A DNA stretch of 64,000 bases from a virus, in IMG/VR virus record IMGVR_UViG_3300027969_000045; one strand, given 5' to 3'. Below the pieces are notes generated by a model. That model saw only the letters and a program-made list of their open reading frames with translations. It was not told the DNA's origin and searched no databases. Positions 1,702-31,781 of the stretch are shown here, piece by piece. Position 1 is the stretch's first letter. Every line of letters starts with the position of its first letter. The translations under genes were made by a program, and so were the position numbers.

Positions 1702-3388
1702 GAATTTTTTGTCTTCTGGAAATACGCCAACAGAAATTAATTTTGCCGAAGTTTCAACAACATTAATTGTTGGAACAAATGGTTCTGGCAAAAGTACAAT
1801 GTTGGATGCCTTGTGTTTTGTTTTATTCAATAAAGCATTTAGAAAGATTGTAAAAAATCAACTCATCAATTCAACCAATGAAAAAGAATGTCTGGTTGAA
1901 ATTGAATTTAATATTTCAGACAAAGAATATAAAGTCATAAGAGGAATTAAACCAAATATTTTTGAAATTTGGATTGATGGTGTTCTACAAAATCAAGTAG
2001 CAGCATCAAACGACCAACAAAAATACCTAGAAGATACAATACTGAAATTAAATTATAAATCATTTACGCAAATTGTAATTCTTGGAAGTGCTTCTTTTGT
2101 GCCTTTTATGCAACTTTCGGCAGCACATCGTCGTGAAGTTGTGGAAGACTTATTGGATATTAAAATATTTTCAACAATGAATTCCATTTTAAAAGAAAAA
2201 ATAAGAAATTCAAATGAAAAAATAAAAGAATTCACTTTGCTTGAAAAATCAATTGACGAAAAGATTTTGATGCAGACTGATTTTATTGAAGAATTGGAAA
2301 AAAGAGGTAAAAAAAATATAGAGCAAAAGCAAAATAAAATTCAAGAACTTTTTGATTTAGAAGTTTCTGTGAGTGATGAAATTGACGCGATACAAAAAAA
2401 AGTTGTTTCATTAAATTCGCAACTTGAAGAGTTTTCGGATGCAGCAACTAAACTCAAAAAACTCACCTCCCTTAAAGGAAAAATACAACAAAAAGTTATT
2501 TCTATTACTGAAGAGCACAAATTTTTTAATGAGAATTCTGTATGTCCAACTTGCAAACAATCAATTGAAGAAGATTTTAGGTTCAATAAAGTAAATGAAA
2601 TAGAAACAAATTCAAAAGATTTGAAAGAAGGATATGTTGAATTGGAAAGGACAATTGAAGATGAAGAAAAAAGAGAAGAACAATTCATTCAAATTTCAAA
2701 AGAAATATCAAGATTGAATAATGAAATTTCCAAAGATAATATTTGTATTTCAAATTACAGAAAAAATATTAAAGAATTGCAGAATGAAATTCAAACCATT
2801 ACAGAGCAATTTGAAAATAAAAACATTGAAACCGAAAAATTAAAATTTTTACATAAAGAAAAAGAAGATAATTTTAAAAAGAAATCAAAATATAAAGAAA
2901 CTGTAAATTATTTTGACTTTGCTCAACTTTTAATGAAAGACGGTGGGGTTAAATCAAAAATTATTCAAAAGTATATTCCATTGATGAATCAACAAATCAA
3001 TAAGTATTTGCAGATGATGGAGTTTTATATTAATTTTACTCTTGATGATGAATTCAAAGAACATATTAAATCTCCAATTCACGAAGATTTCAGTTATGAA
3101 AGTTTTAGTGAAGGCGAAAAAATGAGAATTAACTTGGCAATTCTTTTCACTTGGAGAGAAATTGCTAGAATGAAAAATAGTGTCTCTACAAATCTTTTGA
3201 TTTTAGATGAAGTTTTTGATAGTTCTTTAGATAATACTGGAACTGATTACTTTACAAAAATCATCAAATATGTGATTAAAGATACTAATGTGTTTGTGAT
3301 TTCGCATAAGACAGATGAATTGATTGCTAAGTTTGATAAAATTATTACATTTGAAAAAGTGAAAGGATTTTCTAAGATAAGCACTTGA
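1673..3388 (+). CDS. gp46: T4 gp46-like recombination ATPase (Rad50/SbcC family)
   Basis: Walker A GTNGSGKS, zinc hook CPTC, signature FSEGE, Walker B LILDEVFD, coiled coils. Confidence 0.96.
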   Translation: MILFKRIKFKNFLSSGNTPTEINFAEVSTTLIVGTNGSGKSTMLDALCFVLFNKAFRKIVKNQLINSTNEKECLVEIEFNISDKEYKVIRGIKPNIFEIWIDGVLQNQVAASNDQQKYLEDTILKLNYKSFTQIVILGSASFVPFMQLSAAHRREVVEDLLDIKIFSTMNSILKEKIRNSNEKIKEFTLLEKSIDEKILMQTDFIEELEKRGKKNIEQKQNKIQELFDLEVSVSDEIDAIQKKVVSLNSQLEEFSDAATKLKKLTSLKGKIQQKVISITEEHKFFNENSVCPTCKQSIEEDFRFNKVNEIETNSKDLKEGYVELERTIEDEEKREEQFIQISKEISRLNNEISKDNICISNYRKNIKELQNEIQTITEQFENKNIETEKLKFLHKEKEDNFKKKSKYKETVNYFDFAQLLMKDGGVKSKIIQKYIPLMNQQINKYLQMMEFYINFTLDDEFKEHIKSPIHEDFSYESFSEGEKMRINLAILFTWREIARMKNSVSTNLLILDEVFDSSLDNTGTDYFTKIIKYVIKDTNVFVISHKTDELIAKFDKIITFEKVKGFSKIST

Positions 3389-3413
3389 CTTTTTTTGATT
3401 TTTGTGTTAGTAT
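3385..3413 (+). promoter_or_regulatory. sigma70-type early promoter
   Basis: TTGACT-17 bp-TAGTAT upstream of 3438. Confidence 0.55.
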
Positions 3414-3437
3414 TTTAAGGTAGTTTGATACTAAATT

Positions 3438-3746
3438 ATGAAATGGAAGTACAATGAAGAACAAATTCTAAAAGATATTGGTGAATATGTTCTCAGTACA
3501 TATGGTAGTCATTACGTCGGCAGTGAAGAAGGATATGAAGATATTCAAACGATTGATTTGGCTGCTTCCAAAGGACTTGCTCAAGACTTCTGTCAAGTGA
3601 ATATTTTGAAGTATGGTTCTAGATATGGGCAAAAGAATGGTCGCAATAAAAGAGATTTGCTTAAAGTCATTCATTATGCTATGCTACTTCTTCACTTTGA
3701 CAGGCACTATAGCCGTGTTGATAATGGACTGGATGAATTTAAATGA
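3438..3746 (+). CDS. Conserved phage hypothetical protein upstream of gp45
   Basis: NILKYGSRYGQK..DLLKVIHYA motif; coupled to gp45. Confidence 0.75.
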   Translation: MKWKYNEEQILKDIGEYVLSTYGSHYVGSEEGYEDIQTIDLAASKGLAQDFCQVNILKYGSRYGQKNGRNKRDLLKVIHYAMLLLHFDRHYSRVDNGLDEFK

Positions 3747-4408
3747 AACTATCTGAAAATACAATTTCAATTCTTAAAAACTTTGCGTCAATTAATCAAT
3801 CTATTCTTGTGAAGAGTGGATCAAAAATTCGCACTATGTCTGTAATAAAAACTATCTTGGCACAGGCAGAAGTAGAAGAAGAATTTCCAAAAGACTTTGC
3901 AATTTATGATTTAAATCAATTTCTAAACGGTCTTAGCCTTCACCAAGACCCAGAACTTGATTTTTCAAATGATAATTATCTTGTAATCCGAGAAGGGAAA
4001 CGTAAGGTAAAGTATTTCTTTGCTGATCCAGAAGTAATTGTTTCTGCGCCAGAAAAAGAAATTGAACTTCCTTCCAAAGATGTTTGTTTTCAACTTGATC
4101 ATTCCCATTTAGATAAATTGAAAAAAGCATCAGCAGTATATCAGTTGAATGATCTATCTGTAATTGGTGATGCTGGTGTAATTCGTTTGGTTGTAAGAGA
4201 TAAGAGAAACGATACTTCTAACGAGTATTCAATTACTGTGGGAGAAACTGATAAGGAATTTGTGTTTAATTTTAAAGTTGAAAATCTTAAAATTATTCCA
4301 ACAAATTATGATGTTGTGATTTCATCTAAACTCATTTCCCAATTTACAAATGAGAAGTATAATTTGAATTATTGGATTCCAATGGAACCCGATTCTGAAT
4401 TTAAATAA
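3743..4408 (+). CDS. gp45: Sliding clamp
   Basis: MKLSENTISILKNFASINQSI N-terminus, FAIYDLNQFL, 221 aa, T4 synteny. Confidence 0.93.
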   Translation: MKLSENTISILKNFASINQSILVKSGSKIRTMSVIKTILAQAEVEEEFPKDFAIYDLNQFLNGLSLHQDPELDFSNDNYLVIREGKRKVKYFFADPEVIVSAPEKEIELPSKDVCFQLDHSHLDKLKKASAVYQLNDLSVIGDAGVIRLVVRDKRNDTSNEYSITVGETDKEFVFNFKVENLKIIPTNYDVVISSKLISQFTNEKYNLNYWIPMEPDSEFK

Positions 4409-4425
4409 CTTTATTTTTTTATATT

Positions 4426-4956
4426 ATGAACATTTTTGCCAATGATCAGTGTCCGGTGCTTTCTGCCGTGGCACTTCCTGACAAATACTCAGTGAAAATG
4501 CCCTTGGAGACCTGTCAGATGATTTCTGTCATCTACTCCAAGTGGTACTATGATTGGGGAACCATTCCAAAGAAAGACGGCACCCCCTATAATACAGAGA
4601 AGGGTGCCTTCCGTAATCATCCTTGTACTCAATGGGCAGCAAAATCCCACGAGAACCTTGCTTGGTTGATTCGGCACGGATTTGCCCTTTGTAATGAGTA
4701 TCGGCATCGTTATGAAAAAGACCACGCTTGTATGAAAGGTCTTGAAGTTGCGGAGAATATCTTTGCTACTAAAAGTGGAAAAGAAATCGGTATCTACAAA
4801 AATGTGGTAGAATTCACAAGGGCAATGTCGGATGAGTTCAAGTGCGATACTTCAATTGATACATTTGAGGCATATAGAAGATATGTTGCCTCCAAACCCT
4901 GGGTGAAGGATAATTACCTTCGCATCCCCGAAAGACGACCGCAATGGGTGGTATAA
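4426..4956 (+). CDS. Pyrimidine-dimer DNA glycosylase-like protein
   Basis: MNIF..DK..VKMPLETCQM, NHPCTQW, LCNEYRHRY.K.H motifs resemble the DenV-related family. Confidence 0.6.
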   Translation: MNIFANDQCPVLSAVALPDKYSVKMPLETCQMISVIYSKWYYDWGTIPKKDGTPYNTEKGAFRNHPCTQWAAKSHENLAWLIRHGFALCNEYRHRYEKDHACMKGLEVAENIFATKSGKEIGIYKNVVEFTRAMSDEFKCDTSIDTFEAYRRYVASKPWVKDNYLRIPERRPQWVV

Positions 4957-5048
4957 ATAATGATGCCTGGTTTGTTCGCACTTTTCGGGTGGGGGAGTAG
5001 AAATGCTCTCCCTTATAAATAGTATTGCGAACAAACAACAGAGCAGAA
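4952..5048 (+). ncRNA. Dual late promoter plus structured RNA cassette, copy 1 (candidate sRNA or pseudoknot)
   Basis: TATAAATA 4952; stem GCCTG/CGGGT; loop GTTTGTTCGCA complementary to TGCGAACAAAC 5026-5036; GAAA-tetraloop hairpin 4991-5012; second TATAAATA 5014; same architecture at 23312. Confidence 0.6.
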
Positions 5049-5618
5049 ATGTATTACTACACTTACGCATATTTGCGTGAAGATAAAACTCCTTATTATA
5101 TTGGTAAGGGTAAAGGTAATAGAATTAACTCTAAACAAAGAAGTATAAAACCCCCCAAAGATAAAAGTAGAATAATATACCTCAAACAAAATCTAACTGA
5201 AGCAGAGGCATTTAGACACGAAATCTATATGATTGCTGTGTTCGGTAGAAAGGATTTAGGAACTGGTATTCTTCATAATAGAACTGATGGTGGTGATGGT
5301 GCTTCTGGTACTGTAAGAAGTGTGGAAGTTAAGAAAAAGCAAAGTGAAAGGATGAGTGGAGAAAACAATCCTCACTATGGTAAAAGAGGTAAAGAGGGAC
5401 CTCATTATGGTAAAAAACATACGCAAGAAACAAAAGATAGAATAAGAAAATCTCTACAAGGTAATGTAATTTCCAAAGAAACTAGAATAAAGATTAGTGA
5501 AAAAAATAAACTAAATCAACTTGGAGAAAACAATTCCTTTTATGGGAGAAAACATACAGAAGAAACTAAAAGAAAAATGAGTGAGGCAGCAAAACGAAGA
5601 AAAGAAAAAGGTTCTTGA
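5049..5618 (+). CDS. GIY-YIG homing endonuclease with NUMOD3-like repeats
   Basis: YTYAY..YYIGKG..R..E..N catalytic module; HYGKKHTQETK and FYGRKHTEETKRKMS repeats; ATG 5049 follows a late promoter. Confidence 0.85.
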   Translation: MYYYTYAYLREDKTPYYIGKGKGNRINSKQRSIKPPKDKSRIIYLKQNLTEAEAFRHEIYMIAVFGRKDLGTGILHNRTDGGDGASGTVRSVEVKKKQSERMSGENNPHYGKRGKEGPHYGKKHTQETKDRIRKSLQGNVISKETRIKISEKNKLNQLGENNSFYGRKHTEETKRKMSEAAKRRKEKGS

Positions 5619-13367: not shown

Positions 13368-13399
13368 TATAAATAAGTGTGGTTACTAACCATACACAA

Positions 13400-13957
13400 A
13401 TGTTTATAGATACGCACCACATAATACCAAGATCTGAAGGTGGAACTGATGATCCAAAAAATCTTGTTAAACTTCCAAGAAGATTACATCAAGAAGTTCA
13501 TCATCGTAGGTGGTTAGTTGGTGGATCTATTAATGATTTGTATGCTTTCCAAATATTAGGCGGAAATTTATCAGACGATGAATTGAAAAAAATTTATGAA
13601 GATCAAGTTTATAGATGTAAGAGGGATCAAACTAAATTGACTGAATCTAGAATAAATTCTGATAAATGGAAACAATCACATCAAAATGATGAATATAAAC
13701 AAAAGAAAAGAGAACAGAGTATTTTATTAAATAAACTTGGAAAAATTAATTCTAAAGAATCATCAATGCTTATAAGTGAAAAGAAAAAATCGGTGAAAAA
13801 TTACAATTCAAAATTAATTTCAGTTTATGGTAAAATATGGGAGGATGCTTCTAAATGTGTAAGAAGTGGTGGTTCTAATGGATTAAGTTTAAGACAATTG
13901 AGATACCGAGCGAATGAAATTAATTATCCCGATATATTTTATGTGGAGCAAATTTAG
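13400..13957 (+). CDS. HNH homing endonuclease
   Basis: HHIIPRSEGGTDDPKNLVKL..LHQEVH; late promoter TATAAATA and a short hairpin upstream. Confidence 0.85.
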   Translation: MFIDTHHIIPRSEGGTDDPKNLVKLPRRLHQEVHHRRWLVGGSINDLYAFQILGGNLSDDELKKIYEDQVYRCKRDQTKLTESRINSDKWKQSHQNDEYKQKKREQSILLNKLGKINSKESSMLISEKKKSVKNYNSKLISVYGKIWEDASKCVRSGGSNGLSLRQLRYRANEINYPDIFYVEQI

Positions 13958-13959
13958 TT

Positions 13960-14520
13960 ATGGTAATTGATTTAAATTATTTTGTTCAAGTTCATGAAAA
14001 TGCACTGGAAGAAAATGTTTGTGATTTCTTAATTTCATTATTTGATCAAGTTCCAGATAAACACGAGAGAATAGAAAACGAAAGAAAACCAAACTTCACT
14101 CAATTCAATCTTACTGAAAACTGTAAGATCACAGACGAAGTAAATACTGTTCACAATCATTTAATTAAAAAAACTTTTGATTATCGTAATGAATATTATG
14201 ATATGATTGATAAGAGAGTTTTTCCGGAAGAACACGCATTTGAACAATTTCGCATTAAGAGGTACAATAATGATGGCAATGACGAATTTGACACTCACGT
14301 AGATGTTATAGATCACGCAACATCAAGAAGATATTTGGCATTCTTTTGGTATTTGAATGATGTAGAACAGGGAGGAGAAACTAAATTTGCTGATATGATT
14401 ATACAACCAAAGAAAGGGAGTCTTCTTGTATTCCCTCCTCTTTGGATGTTTCCTCACGCAGGATTGCAACCAATAAGCAATCCAAAATATATTTTACACA
14501 CGTATTTGCACTATAAGTAA
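13960..14520 (+). CDS. 2OG-Fe(II) oxygenase (prolyl-hydroxylase-like)
   Basis: HVD..YLNDV..GGET.F..P.KG.LLVFP..PH.G..KY facial triad pattern. Confidence 0.88.
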   Translation: MVIDLNYFVQVHENALEENVCDFLISLFDQVPDKHERIENERKPNFTQFNLTENCKITDEVNTVHNHLIKKTFDYRNEYYDMIDKRVFPEEHAFEQFRIKRYNNDGNDEFDTHVDVIDHATSRRYLAFFWYLNDVEQGGETKFADMIIQPKKGSLLVFPPLWMFPHAGLQPISNPKYILHTYLHYK

Positions 14521-15152
14521 TGGAAAAAGTCGAAACTACTATTTTAAGAAATTTACTTTTTAATAATGATTATTGTAGAAAAGTATTACCATTTATTAAA
14601 AATGAATATTTTGAAAACCTTCACGAGAAGGTAGTTTTTGAAGAGATTTGTAAGTTTATTGTTGCTTATGATGGTCTTGCGACAAAAGAAGTTCTTTTAA
14701 TTGAAACTGAAAAAAGAACTGATATTACAGAAGATACTTATAAAACAATTTGTGAATATGTTTCTAATTTAGATAATACTCCTGCTGATACGAATTGGGT
14801 TACTGATACTACAGAAAAATGGTGCCGTGATAGAGCAATCTATCTTGCACTTATGGAAAGCATTAAAATTGCTGACGGACAAGATGATAAGAAGAATAGA
14901 GATGCAATTCCAACTATTCTTCAAGAAGCACTTGCTATTTCTTTTGATGACCATATTGGCCACGATTATCTAAACGATTATGAGGACAGATTTAATTCTT
15001 ATCACAGAAAAGAAGATAAAATTTCTTTTGATTTGGAATATTTTAACAAAATTACCAAAGGTGGTATTCCCAATAAAACACTCAATATTGCTTTAGCTGG
15101 TTGCGTTCATCCAGAAACCAGAGTTAAAATCAGATTTAGGAAGATTTCTTGA
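14520..15152 (+). CDS. gp41: gp41 DNA helicase N-terminal part fused to a 16-aa split-intein N fragment
   Basis: gp41 N-domain up to LNIALAG (first half of Walker A), then CVHPETRVKIRFRKIS stop. Confidence 0.92.
   Translation: MEKVETTILRNLLFNNDYCRKVLPFIKNEYFENLHEKVVFEEICKFIVAYDGLATKEVLLIETEKRTDITEDTYKTICEYVSNLDNTPADTNWVTDTTEKWCRDRAIYLALMESIKIADGQDDKKNRDAIPTILQEALAISFDDHIGHDYLNDYEDRFNSYHRKEDKISFDLEYFNKITKGGIPNKTLNIALAGCVHPETRVKIRFRKIS
15102..15149 (+). mobile_element. Atypically short split intein N fragment (16 aa)
   Basis: Intein block A pattern C-V-H-P-E-T-x-V at the Walker A junction. Confidence 0.85.
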
Positions 15153-15804
15153 TTTTGGAGTTTGGTGCTGGTTCTCCAGTTCCAAACTTCCAACCTTCAT
15201 TTAGTTTTATATCAACTTCTTCTGGTGATACTCTTTTCCATCCCTTTGTTCCCGGTAAATGCATTACCTTTTTGCCTTTATGTGCCTTTCCCCCTAATGA
15301 TGCTCGTGTTTTTCTTCCTTCATTAGATGCCCAATAATTGAATTCTGTGGATGCTCTTTGTTTTCCTCCAATTGATGCTCTTTCCTTTCTGCCTTCTTCT
15401 GTACTCCAATAATAGAAATTTTTAGTATTATTGATTAGATATTCTTGTTTTTGTATTTCTATTCCTTTTAGTCTCCAATCTTTTCTTTCTTCTACTGGGA
15501 TTGAGAAGAACCCAATTTGATTATCTCTACAAAATTCTCCTATTATTTTTCTGTGTTGGGGTGTTATATTTGCCCCCAACATTTTCATAGACCTTAAATC
15601 ATTTGGATTTTTATAAATTTTCCAAAGTAAATAATGTGCTATGATATGTTCTCTTACACTTAAATAAGTGAGATTTTCTTCACTATTATCTCCCCCCATA
15701 TGTTTTGGAGTAATATGGTGTTCGTGTATCCCAGAATATTTTTTATAATTGTCTTTTCTTGACCTATTGCTTTCGCATAGATTATAATAGATTTGACTAA
15801 ACAT
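15136..15804 (-). CDS. HNH homing endonuclease between the gp41 halves, opposite strand
   Basis: EHHITPKHMGGDNSEENLTYL..REHIIAHYLL; minus-strand TATAAATA at 15826-15833 and G-rich RBS. Confidence 0.88.
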   Translation of the reverse strand: MFSQIYYNLCESNRSRKDNYKKYSGIHEHHITPKHMGGDNSEENLTYLSVREHIIAHYLLWKIYKNPNDLRSMKMLGANITPQHRKIIGEFCRDNQIGFFSIPVEERKDWRLKGIEIQKQEYLINNTKNFYYWSTEEGRKERASIGGKQRASTEFNYWASNEGRKTRASLGGKAHKGKKVMHLPGTKGWKRVSPEEVDIKLNEGWKFGTGEPAPNSKIKKSS

Positions 15805-15837
15805 TTCCCCTGTCCCTGCTACTACTATTTATACAAA

Positions 15838-17010
15838 ATGTGGATTGAAAAAGAAACATCAATTGCTGAAATCAAAACATTACTTGATAATGGATATGAA
15901 GTGGAGGTCGATTCTCCCGATGGATATGTTCCTGTTAATTTTTTTATTAATAAAGGAATGTACGAAGAATATGAATTGCACTTGTATGATACTACTACTA
16001 AAGTAAAATGTAACGAAAGTCATTTATTTGAAACTAATCAGGGGTGGATTTCTGCTAAATCATTAGAGTATTCTAATTCGTATTGGGAGTTTATTACTAA
16101 AGACGGACTTAGAATTGGTAAGGTTATTAAGACCAATAATCAAATACCTATTGTAGATATTAATGTAAATCATCCAAATCATAGGTATTATACTAATGGG
16201 GTTTCCTCCCATAATACTGGTGTCGGAAAATCTTTGTTTATGTGTCATTTTGCTGCATCAGTTCTTCTTCAAGGAAAAAATGTTTTATACATTACACTTG
16301 AAATGGCAGAGGAAAAGATTGCTGAAAGAATTGACGCAAATCTTCTAAACATTAATATTAAAGACATTGAAACATTACCTAAAATGATGTTTGACTCAAA
16401 AATAAATAGTATTGCGAAGAAGACTCAAGGAACTTTAATTATTAAAGAGTATCCAACTGCTTCCGCACACGCAGGACATTTCAGAGCACTTCTAAATGAA
16501 CTCTCTCTTAAGAAATCATTCAGACCTGATATTATTTTTATTGACTACCTTAATATTTGTGGTTCCTCAAGATATAAGAGTAATTTTTCAGTTAATTCTT
16601 ATTCATATATTAAAGCAATTGCAGAAGAACTTCGTGGTCTTGCAGTTGAAGCAAATGTTCCAATTGTTTCCGCTACTCAAACTACTCGTAGTGGTTTTTC
16701 TAGCTCTGATCCTGATCTTACTGATACTTCTGAATCCTTTGGTCTCCCTGCTACTGCTGATCTTATGTTTGCCCTTATTAGCACAGAAGAGTTGGAACAA
16801 CTCGGGCAGATTATGGTAAAACAATTGAAGAATAGATACAATGACCCAACAATGAATAAAAGATTTGTAGTTGGTATTGACCGTGCGAAGATGAGATTAT
16901 TTGATGTAGAGCAAAGTGCTCAAACCGATATACTTGACTCTGGACAAGAAGAAGAGTATACTTATGAAGAAGATAAACCCAAAAAACAATTCTCTGGATT
17001 TAAATTTTAA
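15838..17010 (+). CDS. gp41: Split-intein C fragment (126 aa) fused to the gp41 helicase C-terminal part
   Basis: Block B KCNESHLF, block F IVDINV, block G YYTNGVSSHN, then TGVGKS, ITLEM, IDYL, ATQ, DTSESFGL, KNRY. Confidence 0.92.
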   Translation: MWIEKETSIAEIKTLLDNGYEVEVDSPDGYVPVNFFINKGMYEEYELHLYDTTTKVKCNESHLFETNQGWISAKSLEYSNSYWEFITKDGLRIGKVIKTNNQIPIVDINVNHPNHRYYTNGVSSHNTGVGKSLFMCHFAASVLLQGKNVLYITLEMAEEKIAERIDANLLNINIKDIETLPKMMFDSKINSIAKKTQGTLIIKEYPTASAHAGHFRALLNELSLKKSFRPDIIFIDYLNICGSSRYKSNFSVNSYSYIKAIAEELRGLAVEANVPIVSATQTTRSGFSSSDPDLTDTSESFGLPATADLMFALISTEELEQLGQIMVKQLKNRYNDPTMNKRFVVGIDRAKMRLFDVEQSAQTDILDSGQEEEYTYEEDKPKKQFSGFKF

Positions 17011-17420
17011 TGACTAAAAAAATTGACTTTTCTAAATATCAAAACTTTGTAGATGCTGTAACTAGTGATGCATCTAAAGACTTTCTTGCTCTTTCTGACC
17101 GTATGGTAGAACTTGATGAGAAAGGTGCTAATATTGAAAGACTTTTGACTGCTGGTGTTGGTATTAATGCCGAAGGTGGTGAATTTCTTGAGATTGTGAA
17201 GAAAATGCTATTTCAGGGAAAACCTTGGAATGACGAAACCCGTACTCACCTGATTAAAGAACTTGGAGATACGATGTGGTATGTTGCCCAAGCCTGTATT
17301 GCTCTTGAAGTTTCTTTTGATGAAGTAATTCAAACCAATATTGACAAGCTAATGAAGCGTTATCCAGAAGGTTATTTTGATGCTTACTACAGCGAAAATC
17401 GTGAAGTGGGAGACATTTGA
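17010..17420 (+). CDS. mazG: MazG-like nucleotide pyrophosphohydrolase
   Basis: AEGGEFLEIVKK..KELGDTMWY..NIDKLMKRYP. Confidence 0.92.
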   Translation: MTKKIDFSKYQNFVDAVTSDASKDFLALSDRMVELDEKGANIERLLTAGVGINAEGGEFLEIVKKMLFQGKPWNDETRTHLIKELGDTMWYVAQACIALEVSFDEVIQTNIDKLMKRYPEGYFDAYYSENREVGDI

Positions 17421-27242: not shown

Positions 27243-28247
27243 ATGAATTTTATTGATCAAAAATACATTGGTCTGGTTTCTTCAAGACTGGAGAAGTTTA
27301 AACAAGTTAAAACTGGACTGTATAATTTTAGATGTGTATATTGTGGGGATTCACAAAAGAATAAAAGCAAGACAAGAGGATATATTTACGGTTATAAGAA
27401 CGATCATAATTACAAGTGTCACAATTGTGGAGTATCTAAATCTTTTACTAATTTTCTAAAAGATATTGACACCACTCTTTATGATCAATATATTATGGAG
27501 AGATATAAGAATGGTTCTACTGGCAAGGGATCTAATACACCGGAACCAAAATTCACCTTTGAAAAACCAAAATTCACAAAAAAAGCATTTGATTTGCCAT
27601 CCATCGCAGAACTAAATAAAGAACATTCGGCAAGAATTTATTTAGAAAACAGAAAAATTCCTCAAGATTTTTTGAGTCAATTATTTTATTGTGAAAAGTT
27701 CAAACAATGGACGAATGAACAAAAAAAAACTTTTGAATCTACAAAATACGATGAACCTAGAATCATCATTCCACTTATCAACAATGGAGAAATATTTGGA
27801 TTTCAGGGTCGTAGTTTAAGTAAGAAACCAAAAGTAAAATACATCACAATTATTCTAGATGAAGATCAACCAAAAATTTATGGATTAAACAGAATTGATT
27901 GGAACAAAACTGTTTATGTTGTAGAAGGTCCATTTGATAGTATGTTTATTGAAAATTCAATTGCGATGGTTGGTGCGGATATTGATAAAATGTTTTTCAT
28001 AGCAAATTTTGAAACCAATTTTGTTATGGTCTATGATAATGAAAAAAGAAATAAAGAGATGGTTGCACGATTAGAAAAAAGCATTGAGATGAAATTTCCT
28101 GTGGTAATTTGGCCAAAAGATTTAAAGGAAAAAGACATTAATGATATTGTATTATCTGGACAAGACGTGGAATCTATGCTAAAATTAAATACTTACCAAG
28201 GATTAGAAGCAAAACTTAAATTTACCAACTGGAAAAAAGTAGCATGA
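27243..28247 (+). CDS. gp61: DNA primase
   Basis: Zn ribbon CVYCGDS..CHNC; TOPRIM VVEGPFDS, YDNE, KDIND. Confidence 0.95.
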   Translation: MNFIDQKYIGLVSSRLEKFKQVKTGLYNFRCVYCGDSQKNKSKTRGYIYGYKNDHNYKCHNCGVSKSFTNFLKDIDTTLYDQYIMERYKNGSTGKGSNTPEPKFTFEKPKFTKKAFDLPSIAELNKEHSARIYLENRKIPQDFLSQLFYCEKFKQWTNEQKKTFESTKYDEPRIIIPLINNGEIFGFQGRSLSKKPKVKYITIILDEDQPKIYGLNRIDWNKTVYVVEGPFDSMFIENSIAMVGADIDKMFFIANFETNFVMVYDNEKRNKEMVARLEKSIEMKFPVVIWPKDLKEKDINDIVLSGQDVESMLKLNTYQGLEAKLKFTNWKKVA

Positions 28248-29959
28248 GTAACGGCATAAACGTAGTTAAGAGAGATGGGTCTATTGAAAGTTTAGACCTC
28301 AATAAACTTCATTTGATGGTTGAAGAGTCTTGTAAAGACCTTGCTGGAGTGTCTGCATCTCAAGTTGAGATGACTTCTGGAATTCAATTTTATGATGGAA
28401 TTTCAACAAGAGAAGTTCAAGAAATTTTGATCAAATCTGCAGCAGATTTGATTGATTTAGAAAATCCAAATTATCAGTTTGTGGCAGCAAGACTTCTTTT
28501 GTTCTCTGTTCGTAAATCACTTTACGGAAAAATTAAAGATCATCCTACATTCTTTGAACATATTAATAAATGTGTAGATGCAAGTGTTTATGATAAGGAA
28601 ATCTTATCATATTATACGGAAGAAGAACTAAATCGTCTTGGTGATTATATCAAACATAAACGGGATTATCTCTTCACCTATGCCGGTCTTCGTCAAGTTG
28701 TTGATAAATATCTTGTTCAAGATAGAAGCACCGGACAAGTATATGAAACTCCACAGTTCATGTATATGATGATTGCTGCAACAAAATTCTCCCAATATCC
28801 AAAAGAAACTCGTCTTTCATATGTAAAGAGGTACTATGACGCAATATCAAAACACAAAATCAACATCCCAACACCAATTATGGGAGGAGTTAGAACTCCT
28901 TTACGACAATTTGCAAGTTGTGTTCTTGTTGATTCTGATGATACCCTCGATAGCATCGGTCACTCTGATTTGGCTATTTACAAGTACGTTGCTCAAAGGG
29001 CTGGCATCGGTATCAATGCGGGCAGAATACGTGGTATCAATTCTAAAATCAGAGGCGGAGAAGTACAACACACAGGTGTTATTCCCTTCCTTAAAAAGTT
29101 TGAAGCAACTGTCAGAAGTTGCACTCAAAACGGTATCAGAGGTGGTTCAGCAACTGTTCACTTTCCAATCTGGCACCAAGAAATAGAAGACATTATTGTT
29201 CTGAAAAATAATAAGGGAACTGAAGATAATCGTGTTCGTAAGTTAGACTATTCTATTCAAATCAGCAAAATCTTCTATGAACGATTTATCCGCAACGAAG
29301 AAATCACACTCTTCTCTCCCCACGATGTTCCTGGTCTTTATGATGCTTTTGGCACTGATGGATTTGACGACCTTTATGTGGGTTATGAACGAAATGAATC
29401 TATTCCAAGAAAAACTATCGGTGCTCAAGAACTCTTTCTGGACCTTCTAAAAGAACGTGCAGAAACAGGTCGTATTTATATTATGAATATTGACCATTGT
29501 AATTCTCATAGTTCTTTTCTTGATAAGGTTTCAATGAGTAACCTTTGTGTTGCTGGTGATACAAAGATTAAAATCAAATACCCAAAAGCAATATATGATG
29601 ATATTGGAGAGATTTATGATTGGAAAGTTTATGAAGAAGAAATTGAGATTGGAGATCTGGATGAATATATTAGTTCCAGAGAAATTAGAGTTATGTCTTA
29701 TAAAGTAAGTGATAATGATCCTTGTGAGGATGTTCCTCAAATAGAAGTTCTTTCTTATAATACAGAAACTAATCAACAAGAATGGGCACCTATTACAGCA
29801 TTTGCCGAAACATCACCAAAAGCAAAGGTAATGAGAATTACTGATGAAGAAAGTGGTAAGAGTATTGTAGTGACACCAGAGCATAAAGTATTCACAAAAA
29901 ATCGTGGATATGTAATGGCAAAAGACCTAACCGAAACTGATGAGTTGGCAATCAACTAA
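28244..29959 (+). CDS. nrdA: Class Ia ribonucleotide reductase alpha, N-terminal part, fused to a 137-aa split-intein N fragment
   Basis: ATP cone VVKRDG, PTPIM, ASCVL, QNGIRGGS, MSNL then CVAGDT (29546) and block B VTPEHKVFT. Confidence 0.95.
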   Translation: MSNGINVVKRDGSIESLDLNKLHLMVEESCKDLAGVSASQVEMTSGIQFYDGISTREVQEILIKSAADLIDLENPNYQFVAARLLLFSVRKSLYGKIKDHPTFFEHINKCVDASVYDKEILSYYTEEELNRLGDYIKHKRDYLFTYAGLRQVVDKYLVQDRSTGQVYETPQFMYMMIAATKFSQYPKETRLSYVKRYYDAISKHKINIPTPIMGGVRTPLRQFASCVLVDSDDTLDSIGHSDLAIYKYVAQRAGIGINAGRIRGINSKIRGGEVQHTGVIPFLKKFEATVRSCTQNGIRGGSATVHFPIWHQEIEDIIVLKNNKGTEDNRVRKLDYSIQISKIFYERFIRNEEITLFSPHDVPGLYDAFGTDGFDDLYVGYERNESIPRKTIGAQELFLDLLKERAETGRIYIMNIDHCNSHSSFLDKVSMSNLCVAGDTKIKIKYPKAIYDDIGEIYDWKVYEEEIEIGDLDEYISSREIRVMSYKVSDNDPCEDVPQIEVLSYNTETNQQEWAPITAFAETSPKAKVMRITDEESGKSIVVTPEHKVFTKNRGYVMAKDLTETDELAIN

Positions 29960-29963
29960 TATG

Positions 29964-30017
29964 ATAGGAAGTGTAATTTCTATATTTTATAAATAGTTAT
30001 GAGATTACACTTCCTAT
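29964..30017 (+). promoter_or_regulatory. 17-bp hairpin with late promoter in loop, masking the endonuclease translation start region
   Basis: ATAGGAAGTGTAATTTC / GAGATTACACTTCCTAT; TATAAATA 29988-29995; ATG 30019. Confidence 0.8.
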
Positions 30018-30018
30018 A

Positions 30019-30693
30019 ATGAAAACATATATTGTTTATAAAATTACCAATAAGAATAACGGAAAATCTTACATAGGAAAAACTGAATACTCATTAGAAC
30101 ATCGTTGGAATCGTCATTTATCATCGGCAAGAAATGGTTCTAAATTTAGATTTCATTCTGCTATTAGAAAATATGGTGAAGATTGTTGGGACTTATCTGT
30201 GATTGAAACCTATCTGACCGAAGATGAAAACTTTATTAACGAAAAAGAAACTCACTTTATTAAACTCTTTGAAAGTGATACTAAAAAAGGTTATAATGCT
30301 ACTTCAGGTGGAACTGGTGGATGGATGCTTCCCAAATGCTCTCCGGAGGTTCAGGAAGAATGGAGAAACAATATTTCTATAAGAACTACTGGTTCCAACA
30401 ATCCAAACCATTCTGGATATACTGATGAGCAACTTATAGAAATAGGTGTAAAGTTTGTTAAAAAATTTGGATTTATTGGTGGTAGAACGAGAATAGTTGA
30501 TTTTGCCAGTAATGAATTGAATATAAAGTTTCCAAAACATTTTTCTAAAAATAGATTTGGAGGAAACCATCAAAACTTTTATAAATCTATTGAAGAACAG
30601 ACTGGATTGGTGTATAATTCATATTATAGAGACGAAACTCAAAGAACACTTGCTAAACAACTTTTAGAACAAAACAGGAGAAAAAAATGCTAA
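30019..30693 (+). CDS. GIY-YIG homing endonuclease between the nrdA halves
   Basis: IVYKITNKNNGKSYIGKT..RWNRH..KYG..E..GYN. Confidence 0.9.
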   Translation: MKTYIVYKITNKNNGKSYIGKTEYSLEHRWNRHLSSARNGSKFRFHSAIRKYGEDCWDLSVIETYLTEDENFINEKETHFIKLFESDTKKGYNATSGGTGGWMLPKCSPEVQEEWRNNISIRTTGSNNPNHSGYTDEQLIEIGVKFVKKFGFIGGRTRIVDFASNELNIKFPKHFSKNRFGGNHQNFYKSIEEQTGLVYNSYYRDETQRTLAKQLLEQNRRKKC

Positions 30694-31781
30694 AGATTGA
30701 ATATCTTGAAGAAGAAATTCCAGTTTATGATATTACTGTAGAAGGAACACACAATTTCTTTGCAAATAATATTCTGGTCCATAATTGCCAAGAGATTACA
30801 CTTCCCACCAAACCTCTTCAACATATTGATGATCCAGATGGAGAGATTGCTCTCTGTATTCTTTCTGCAATCAATGTGGGTAAAGTTAAGGATGATAGTG
30901 AATTTGAAGAACTTTGTGATTTGGCTGTTCGTGGGTTGGAAGAACTCATTGATTATCAGCAATATCCAATAGTTGCTGCTGAAAAATCAACAAAAGCACG
31001 TAGATCTCTTGGTGTTGGATTTATTGGTTTGGCACATTATCTTGCTAAACTTGGTTTTGATTATGATTCTCAAGAAGCATGGGATGCAGTTCATAGTCTT
31101 TCTGAATCATTCCAATATTTCTTACTCAAATCTTCTAATCAGATTGCCAAAGAAAAAGGTGCTTGTGAATATTTCAATCGCACAAAGTATTCCCAAGGAA
31201 TTCTTCCAATTGATACATACAAAAAGGATGTTGATGAACTGTCAAATCCAACTCTTCAACACGATTGGGAAACACTTAGAGAAGATATAAAACTGTATGG
31301 TCTTAGACACTCCACACTATCCGCACAGATGCCCTCTGAGAGCAGTTCAGTCGTCTCTAATGCAACTAATGGAATTGAACCCCCTAGAGGTTATTTGTCC
31401 GTCAAACAGTCTAAAAAAGGTCCTCTCAAGCAAATTGTTCCACAGTTTCAAAGTCTTAAAAACAATTATACGCTTCTTTGGGATATGCCTAGCAATCGTG
31501 GTTATATTAATATTGTTGCAGTTATGCAAAAATTCTTTGATCAAGCGATTTCTGGAAACTGGTCATATAATCCGGAGAATTATCCCGATAATGAAGTTCC
31601 TGTTAGCGTAATGGCACAAGATATGCTCACTTGCTTTAAGTATGGGCACAAAACAGCATATTATCAGAATACTTATGATGGTAAGTCCGATGAAATCAAA
31701 GAAGAAAAATCCAACCTTGACAGTTTAGTGCAGGACATACTAAACTCTAATGAAGATGACTGTGAGAGTTGTAAAATTTGA
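30687..31781 (+). CDS. nrdA: Split-intein C fragment (33 aa) fused to the NrdA C-terminal part
   Basis: VYDITVEGTHNFFANNILVHN then CQEITL, LCILSA, MPSESSS, KTAYYQ, C-terminal CESC. Confidence 0.95.
   Translation: MLKIEYLEEEIPVYDITVEGTHNFFANNILVHNCQEITLPTKPLQHIDDPDGEIALCILSAINVGKVKDDSEFEELCDLAVRGLEELIDYQQYPIVAAEKSTKARRSLGVGFIGLAHYLAKLGFDYDSQEAWDAVHSLSESFQYFLLKSSNQIAKEKGACEYFNRTKYSQGILPIDTYKKDVDELSNPTLQHDWETLREDIKLYGLRHSTLSAQMPSESSSVVSNATNGIEPPRGYLSVKQSKKGPLKQIVPQFQSLKNNYTLLWDMPSNRGYINIVAVMQKFFDQAISGNWSYNPENYPDNEVPVSVMAQDMLTCFKYGHKTAYYQNTYDGKSDEIKEEKSNLDSLVQDILNSNEDDCESCKI

Follow-up and report, generated by a model that had tools for sequence, protein, structure and literature searches.

Fractured phage genes, whose halves stay in place and in order, have been described at the gp41-1 to gp41-9, NrdA, NrdJ, IMPDH and terminase loci (Dassa et al., 2009; PMC2677866). 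Here we analyse a fractured gene for the gp41 helicase in a 64,000-nt stretch of virus DNA, IMG/VR record IMGVR_UViG_3300027969_000045 (the window, to whose positions all coordinates refer unless another locus is named). The window gene shares with the published loci the arrangement of its halves, the late promoter sequence TATAAATA on the endonuclease gene and a cyanophage context, UvsX-2OG-gp41. It differs in the site and type of the break: the gp41 inteins of Dassa et al. lie at position 356 and are split canonically, leaving an N-terminal intein fragment (IntN) of 88-105 residues, whereas the window gene is broken in the P-loop by an S1 split. The published endonucleases are GIY-YIG or Vsr-like, but that of the window is of the HNH type and lies on the opposite strand; a hairpin masking the ribosome-binding site, present in 15 of 16 same-strand endonuclease genes of the published set, is not predicted here.

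Inteins naturally split near their N-terminus provide a second point of reference. GOS-TerL and AceL-TerL resemble the gp41 intein in this respect, as well as in their short IntN, their long C-terminal fragment (IntC) and their location in a phage ATPase gene, but they interrupt the large terminase and are split at the S2 position, after the first helix, with an IntN of 25-37 residues (PMC13014065). Natural S1 splits have so far been reported only for VidaL (16-residue IntN) and PolB16 (15 residues, the shortest natural IntN reported), and splicing by VidaL is reported to be fast (PMC13014065); the MIJ3 paper mentions a PolB split intein and no other. VidaL (PDB 6VGV/6VGW) has the HINT fold, an IntN of 16 residues that stops at a homologous loop following strand 2, an IntC of some 125 residues, a Cys1, a block F/G motif and a site in the P-loop of a phage DNA-metabolism ATPase, all as in the gp41 intein, but the two are only about 30-36% identical. 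The solved VidaL chain ends with a Ser-Gly-Lys C-extein and is closely related to the intein in UvsX of phage PA5oct (E 1e-35). From this we place the characterised VidaL in UvsX, with Ser at +1, whereas the gp41 intein has a different host protein and a Thr+1 and is inserted two residues earlier in the P-loop. The UvsX gene of the PA5oct group of cultured Pseudomonas jumbo phages (locus L001, 760-3766) is likewise split at S1 with a gene in the gap, its 82-residue N gene ending with a 17-residue IntN and its IntC being 31.5% identical to that of the window. Unlike the window, L001 has UvsX as host, carries in the gap a 477-residue open reading frame (ORF) on the same strand and without Pfam match, and resembles VidaL much more closely. 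In 2017 Neugebauer et al. reportedly described 'VidaL T4Lh-1', a helicase intein that may be an allele of the gp41 intein studied here.

From the evidence set out below, we consider it very likely that gp41, the essential replicative helicase, is made as two polypeptides in this T4-like cyanophage, that these are probably joined by protein trans-splicing, and that an HNH cassette created the split.

Anatomy of the broken gp41 gene

The two halves of the gene, their intein and extein parts and the gene between them are laid out as follows.

14520-15152, + strand: gp41 N gene, encoding a 194-residue N-extein and a 16-residue IntN, with a TGA stop
14520-15101, + strand: gp41 helicase N-extein, 194 residues, the last of which (Ala-Gly) open the Walker A loop
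15102-15149, + strand: IntN, 16 residues from Cys1 (block A; codon 15102-15104), followed by TGA at 15150-15152
15136-15804, - strand: gene for a free-standing HNH homing endonuclease of 222 residues, phrog_655 (E 2e-15)
15838-17010, + strand: gp41 C gene, from ATG 15838 to the stop at 17008-17010, encoding IntC, Thr+1 and the C-extein
15838-16215, + strand: IntC, 126 residues, with block B His, block F and a terminal His-Asn
16216-17010, + strand: gp41 C-extein, 264 residues plus stop, beginning with Thr+1 of the P-loop (codon 16216-16218)

Both exteins are recognisable parts of one helicase. The N-extein belongs to the DnaB-like helicases of phrog_19 (E 8.5e-46) and is 57% identical to residues 3-193 of gp41 of the Prochlorococcus phage P-RSM4, while the C-extein matches PF03796 (DnaB_C, E 5.5e-18) and is 76% identical to residues 194-458 of the same protein. 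With this unbroken P-RSM4 gp41, obtained by translation, as the intein-less reference for the junction, the exteins meet at residues 193/194 with no residue gained or lost, so that the intein is a precise in-frame insertion; excision of 16 + 126 residues would exactly rebuild the Walker A loop in a helicase of 458 residues, against 459 in P-RSM4. The halves keep their original order and orientation, with the endonuclease gene standing free between them.

The initial annotation, made from the letters alone, had proposed a gp41 helicase fractured in Walker A by a split intein with a 16-residue N fragment, and the coordinates and sequences agree. Its reading of the C gene, as starting at ATG 15838 with 126 residues of intein followed by Thr +1, is borne out by the sequence, and the P-loop that it expected from splicing is what the exact abutment at the P-RSM4 residues provides. 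The antisense HNH gene with a late promoter, said to overlap the N-intein codons, was also seen, the overlap with the 3' end of the N gene measuring 17 nt. We regard the arrangement as other than chance, because IntC matches VidaL (E 1e-11) and the layout recurs in dozens of independent contigs.

Identity, fold and conservation of the intein

Comparison with known atypically split inteins, which the initial annotation had called for, revealed homology to VidaL and a split at the equivalent site. The window IntC matches the sequence of the VidaL crystal structures with an E-value of 1.1e-11, and an unsplit allele from a related locus (L060) matches VidaL across the whole intein length (E 3.2e-12). 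In the latter alignment the residues of L060 that are homologous to IntN pair with the N-terminal strand of VidaL, and residue 1 of the VidaL C-fragment falls on the start Met of the window IntC; the split sites are therefore homologous. Together with the division into two ORFs and an IntN that ends after strand 2, this alignment supports assignment of the gp41 intein to the S1-type atypically split inteins of the VidaL family.

To view the split site in three dimensions we used an AlphaFold model of L060, which is 68% identical to the window IntC, as a stand-in for the window intein. The model (mean pLDDT 86) has strands at residues 7-13 and 19-24, and the split site falls in the loop between them, at residues 14-18. 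A Foldseek search with the model ranked VidaL first (template modelling score 0.87, root-mean-square deviation 1.6 Å) and returned 48 PDB matches at E <= 0.001, of which those listed are inteins or intein-like (BIL) domains, with the Mtu RecA, DnaB, gp41-1 and NrdJ-1 inteins among the lower-ranked ones. The gp41 intein is thus predicted to adopt the HINT horseshoe fold.

The residues expected of a class 1 intein are in place. Cys1 (15102) and Thr+1 (16216) are kept in all alleles examined; the block B His, which aligns with that of VidaL, and the terminal His-Asn are invariant columns of the IntC alignment, and block F is invariant or nearly so in the aligned alleles. The sequence combines a strongly basic IntN with an IntC that is acidic over its first 30 residues, a pairing that would fit electrostatic capture of one fragment by the other. 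The ratio of nonsynonymous to synonymous substitution (dN/dS), taken over 61 split loci, comes to 0.07 in codons 1-14 of IntN and to 0.15 in residues 2-51 of IntC, and both halves of the intein are under purifying selection. The 14-residue core of IntN is almost invariant in these loci, the tail beyond it varying from 0 to 9 residues; in L026 (2852-2897) and L074 (2852-2897) IntN is only 14 residues long.

These constraints bear on two ways in which the broken gene might be understood without ligation. The helicase pieces could act as a non-covalent complex, the intein fragments serving only to dock them without forming a peptide bond, as in the Aeh1 NrdA split by mobE; broken phage enzymes that function without ligation are indeed on record (Dassa et al., 2009; PMC2677866), and the splicing of the gp41 intein is itself deduced. 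We find this unlikely, as the break lies within the Walker A loop and an unspliced form would keep a 142-residue domain in the ATP site, while Cys1, the block B His, His-Asn and Thr+1 are conserved under strong purifying selection and the closest solved relative, VidaL, is reported as a fast splicer (PMC13014065). It is less likely still that gp41 is a pseudogene decaying after insertion of the HNH gene, with replication relying on another helicase: although the visible 64 kb of the genome leave room for a second helicase gene, more than 60 independent contigs have the two halves as intact ORFs, the low dN/dS of the intein is accompanied by highly conserved exteins, and the surrounding gene order matches that around the single P-RSM4 gp41.

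The HNH cassette, its signals and its alleles

Comparison with the contiguous allele L060 defines the boundaries of the inserted DNA, a cassette whose expression signals are listed below.

15152-15839: inserted cassette, 688 bp
15759-15788, + strand: sigma-70-like promoter (TTGACC, 18-nt spacer, TATAAT), 11/12 matches, inside HNH codons 6-16
15805-15817, - strand: purine-rich Shine-Dalgarno-like leader directly 5' of the HNH ATG, read from the sequence
15826-15833, - strand: late promoter box of T4 type, TATAAATA, 21 nt ahead of the HNH start codon

Where the cassette sits in the window, L060 has a single Trp codon; the cassette supplies the last A of the TGA on its left and the AT of the ATG on its right, and the final codons of the HNH gene are the antisense of IntN codons that were already there. 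These boundaries argue against the view that the 688 bp form a group I or II intron, with the HNH gene inside, which RNA splicing would excise. We consider this highly improbable even though phage group I introns often house HNH genes: that gene runs antisense to gp41, the flanks encode an intein and are contiguous in related alleles, a stop and a start codon stand exactly at the insertion boundaries, a scan of 14400-17100 at E <= 1 found no Rfam intron family (only a chance snoRNA match), and the folding of the region does not surpass that of shuffled sequence. A group I/II intron was accordingly rejected as a candidate, there being neither a covariance model match nor a stable conserved fold.

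The HNH protein is identified by its profile match to phrog_655 together with a His-His...Asn...His catalytic motif, whose residues H29, H30, N44 and H53 vary little or not at all among the aligned relatives; its tail is matched by none of the NUMOD-type models in Pfam. It presumably acts as an endonuclease. In a protein scan that worked via shared peptide words, and so favours close relatives, we recovered 73 HNH loci (37-99% identity), and all those with flanks present have the gp41 intein halves in the antisense layout.

Several features mark the cassette as mobile: it is present in some alleles and absent from others, it occupies a specific site, and its identity to related loci is mosaic. 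DNA identity between the window and L004 is 71% in the N-extein, 96% in IntN, 99.0% in the cassette, 91% in IntC and 75% in the C-extein; with the cassette at 99% and the exteins at 71-75%, the cassette moves laterally, and the pattern is what would be produced by lateral transfer with co-conversion of the flanks.

A scan of viral contigs with IntC yielded 80 loci at 58-93% identity, which fall into five states.

State a (most loci): the window layout, with a gap of about 685 nt and an antisense HNH gene
State b (L048, L058, L060-L063): unsplit mini-intein in a single ORF
State c (about 20 loci): between the N gene and the HNH gene, a further ORF of unknown function (+ strand, 102-278 residues)
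State d (L008, L023, L071/72): split without HNH gene, stop and start adjacent or overlapping, with three different deletion scars
State e (L009 group; L075): the HNH of the L009 group has a DNA-binding tail of the I-TevI type; that of L075 is on the + strand

Both ORFs are retained in the split alleles of state d. The extra ORFs of state c (for example L036 2457-3230, L039 1984-2820 and L031 438-1004) have no informative family match, several matching phrog_3708 (function unknown); cargo genes have come to use the break as a landing site. In L009, L018, L019, L046 and L051 (about 3293-3967) an alternative HNH, 38% identical to that of the window and with a C-terminal I-TevI-type DNA-binding domain, occupies the same site, which points to module swapping among the endonucleases that use it.

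Unsplit forms are also found among proteins. A protein search returned 589 clusters, the best names being 'hypothetical protein' or 'replicative DNA helicase', and unsplit forms of 598-608 residues make up 4 of the best 120 matches. One of these, P0011 (600 residues), is identical to the window gp41 at 186 of 194 N-extein, 15 of 16 IntN, 124 of 125 IntC and 261 of 264 C-extein positions, so that a phage near-isogenic to that of the window but with an unsplit intein exists. Junction-pattern scans of the viral and metagenome collections for DNA of a P0011-type unsplit allele found only the L060-type lineage, and none of the cultured cyanophages in the phage collection has this gp41 intein. Because of the near-isogenic unsplit/split pair, and because HNH identity exceeds intein identity, we favour the unsplit intein, rather than an intein-less gene, as the likelier target of the HNH endonuclease.

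Some of the unsplit P-loop intein loci (L060-L062, at about 4859-5125, and L088-L090) have a second interruption, after C-extein residue 161 and near gp41 position 356, where the published gp41-1 split intein is inserted, so that two inteins can occur in one helicase gene.

The signals at the break suggest how the two genes on opposite strands may be expressed. The late promoter box is kept in 58 of 62 cassette-bearing loci and presumably drives the HNH gene. The leader of that gene folds worse than its shuffles (z +1.6), and the antisense orientation itself may shield the gene from early transcription. On the other strand, the sigma-70-like site faces the C gene, 49 nt 5' of its ATG, and is the only strong + strand one in a promoter scan. 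In 56 of the 62 loci, among them those with an HNH type of different sequence and unrelated tail, the equivalent position has a site scoring 10/12 or better; moreover, the HNH codons under the two hexamers have a synonymous constancy of 0.97, as against 0.82 in other conserved codons, and use the otherwise unfavoured AAG and AAC. This suggests that the C gene may be transcribed separately, in which case the antisense overlap would be restricted to a short 5' stretch. Late antisense RNA from the HNH gene might, as the initial annotation supposed, also lower the expression of the helicase. Since no terminator was found between the gp41 halves, read-through from the N gene is also possible; the leader of the C gene folds no better than shuffles.

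Taken together, these observations lead us to propose that a mini-intein sits at the start of the gp41 Walker A loop, and that the mobile 688-bp cassette inserted in the loop after the intein's second beta-strand, at the S1 position. A Trp codon would thereby have been turned into a stop and a start, leaving a basic N-fragment of 16 residues and a C-fragment of 126 residues with an acidic N-terminal stretch. IntN and IntC would then reassemble into the HINT fold, Cys1 would initiate the acyl shift, Thr+1 would attack and the terminal Asn would cyclise, returning an intact P-loop to the 458-residue helicase. The antisense HNH gene of the cassette would be run by its own late promoter, and the outward sigma-70-like promoter probably feeds the downstream half of the helicase.

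A number of points weigh against this explanation. The splicing activity of the gp41 intein is something that we infer from its residues and relatives, and no Pfam intein model matches the contiguous allele L060. The Pfam HNH match of the window protein (E 0.008, 16.7 bits) lies below the cut-off of 21.4, and an AlphaFold model of the protein (pLDDT 82) has no Foldseek match at E <= 0.001, the only local, weak matches being to the HNH cores of Cas8-HNH and of pyocin and colicin DNases. The number of sigma-70-like matches across the region equals the shuffle expectation, for which reason the outward site is only suggestive of a promoter that feeds the downstream half, and its conservation may partly reflect constraint on the protein that it overlaps. 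Finally, the related loci were retrieved via shared peptide words, so that the sample is biased to similar arrangements.

Source phage, neighbouring genes and implications

The genes around gp41 are, in order, UvsX, a second HNH gene, a 2OG-Fe(II) oxygenase, gp41 and a gene that we label MazG-like from synteny, and P-RSM4 has a matching gene order. The best-matching DNA is that of myoviruses of Synechococcus and Prochlorococcus, about 75% identical and limited to the C-extein. From this gene order and these matches we conclude that the source of the window is an uncultured T4-like cyanophage.

The second free-standing HNH gene (13379-13957), also of phrog_655 and with a Pfam HNH match above the cut-off, lies between uvsX and the 2OG oxygenase gene, which adjoin in P-RSM4, and is an insertion there. 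It has the TATAAATA sequence just upstream, at 13368-13375, and copies of it that are 95-98% identical occur in L011 and L052. A second fractured gene, nrdA, is found at 28244-31781.

28244-29959: nrdA N gene, ending in an IntN of about 137 residues
30019-30693: GIY-YIG endonuclease gene, after the nrdA N gene and on the same strand
30687-31781: nrdA C gene, opening with a 33-residue IntC that ends in His-Asn and is followed by Cys

The nrdA intein is split canonically, and one phage thus has both split architectures.

What is new at the gp41 locus is the P-loop of gp41 as host site, the Thr+1, an antisense HNH gene that lacks a masking hairpin, a defined cassette with a probable outward promoter, and a natural series of unsplit and split alleles. 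Split inteins with a short IntN are rare and are wanted for protein semisynthesis and live-cell protein editing. The gp41 intein, which occurs naturally and beside unsplit versions of itself, is related to the engineered "VidaL" tool for protein ligation, and its family offers hundreds of natural variants, a Thr+1 in a Gly-rich junction and tails that trim IntN to 14 residues; given their low identity, the gp41 intein and VidaL are possibly orthogonal.

The natural series is complete, running from the unsplit intein through the split intein with endonuclease and the split intein with cargo genes to the intein that is split after loss of the endonuclease. With its near-isogenic unsplit/split pair, it shows an atypical split site arising by insertion of a homing endonuclease gene. 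We put forward tentatively, as a possibility that falls somewhat short of probable, a broader reading in which the 688-bp unit is a self-contained, intein-targeting cassette. It would home to the codons of the S1 loop in an unsplit mini-intein and bring with it all that renders the break harmless: the stop of the N-fragment, the start of the C-fragment, an outward early promoter serving the downstream half of the helicase and an inward late promoter for its own nuclease. The splitting of the intein would then be an ongoing polymorphism at the level of the population, with the gap as a landing pad for further genes and with some alleles reaching a 14-residue IntN, shorter than any natural one reported. 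If this is true, intein splitting in cyanophages would not be an ancient accident.

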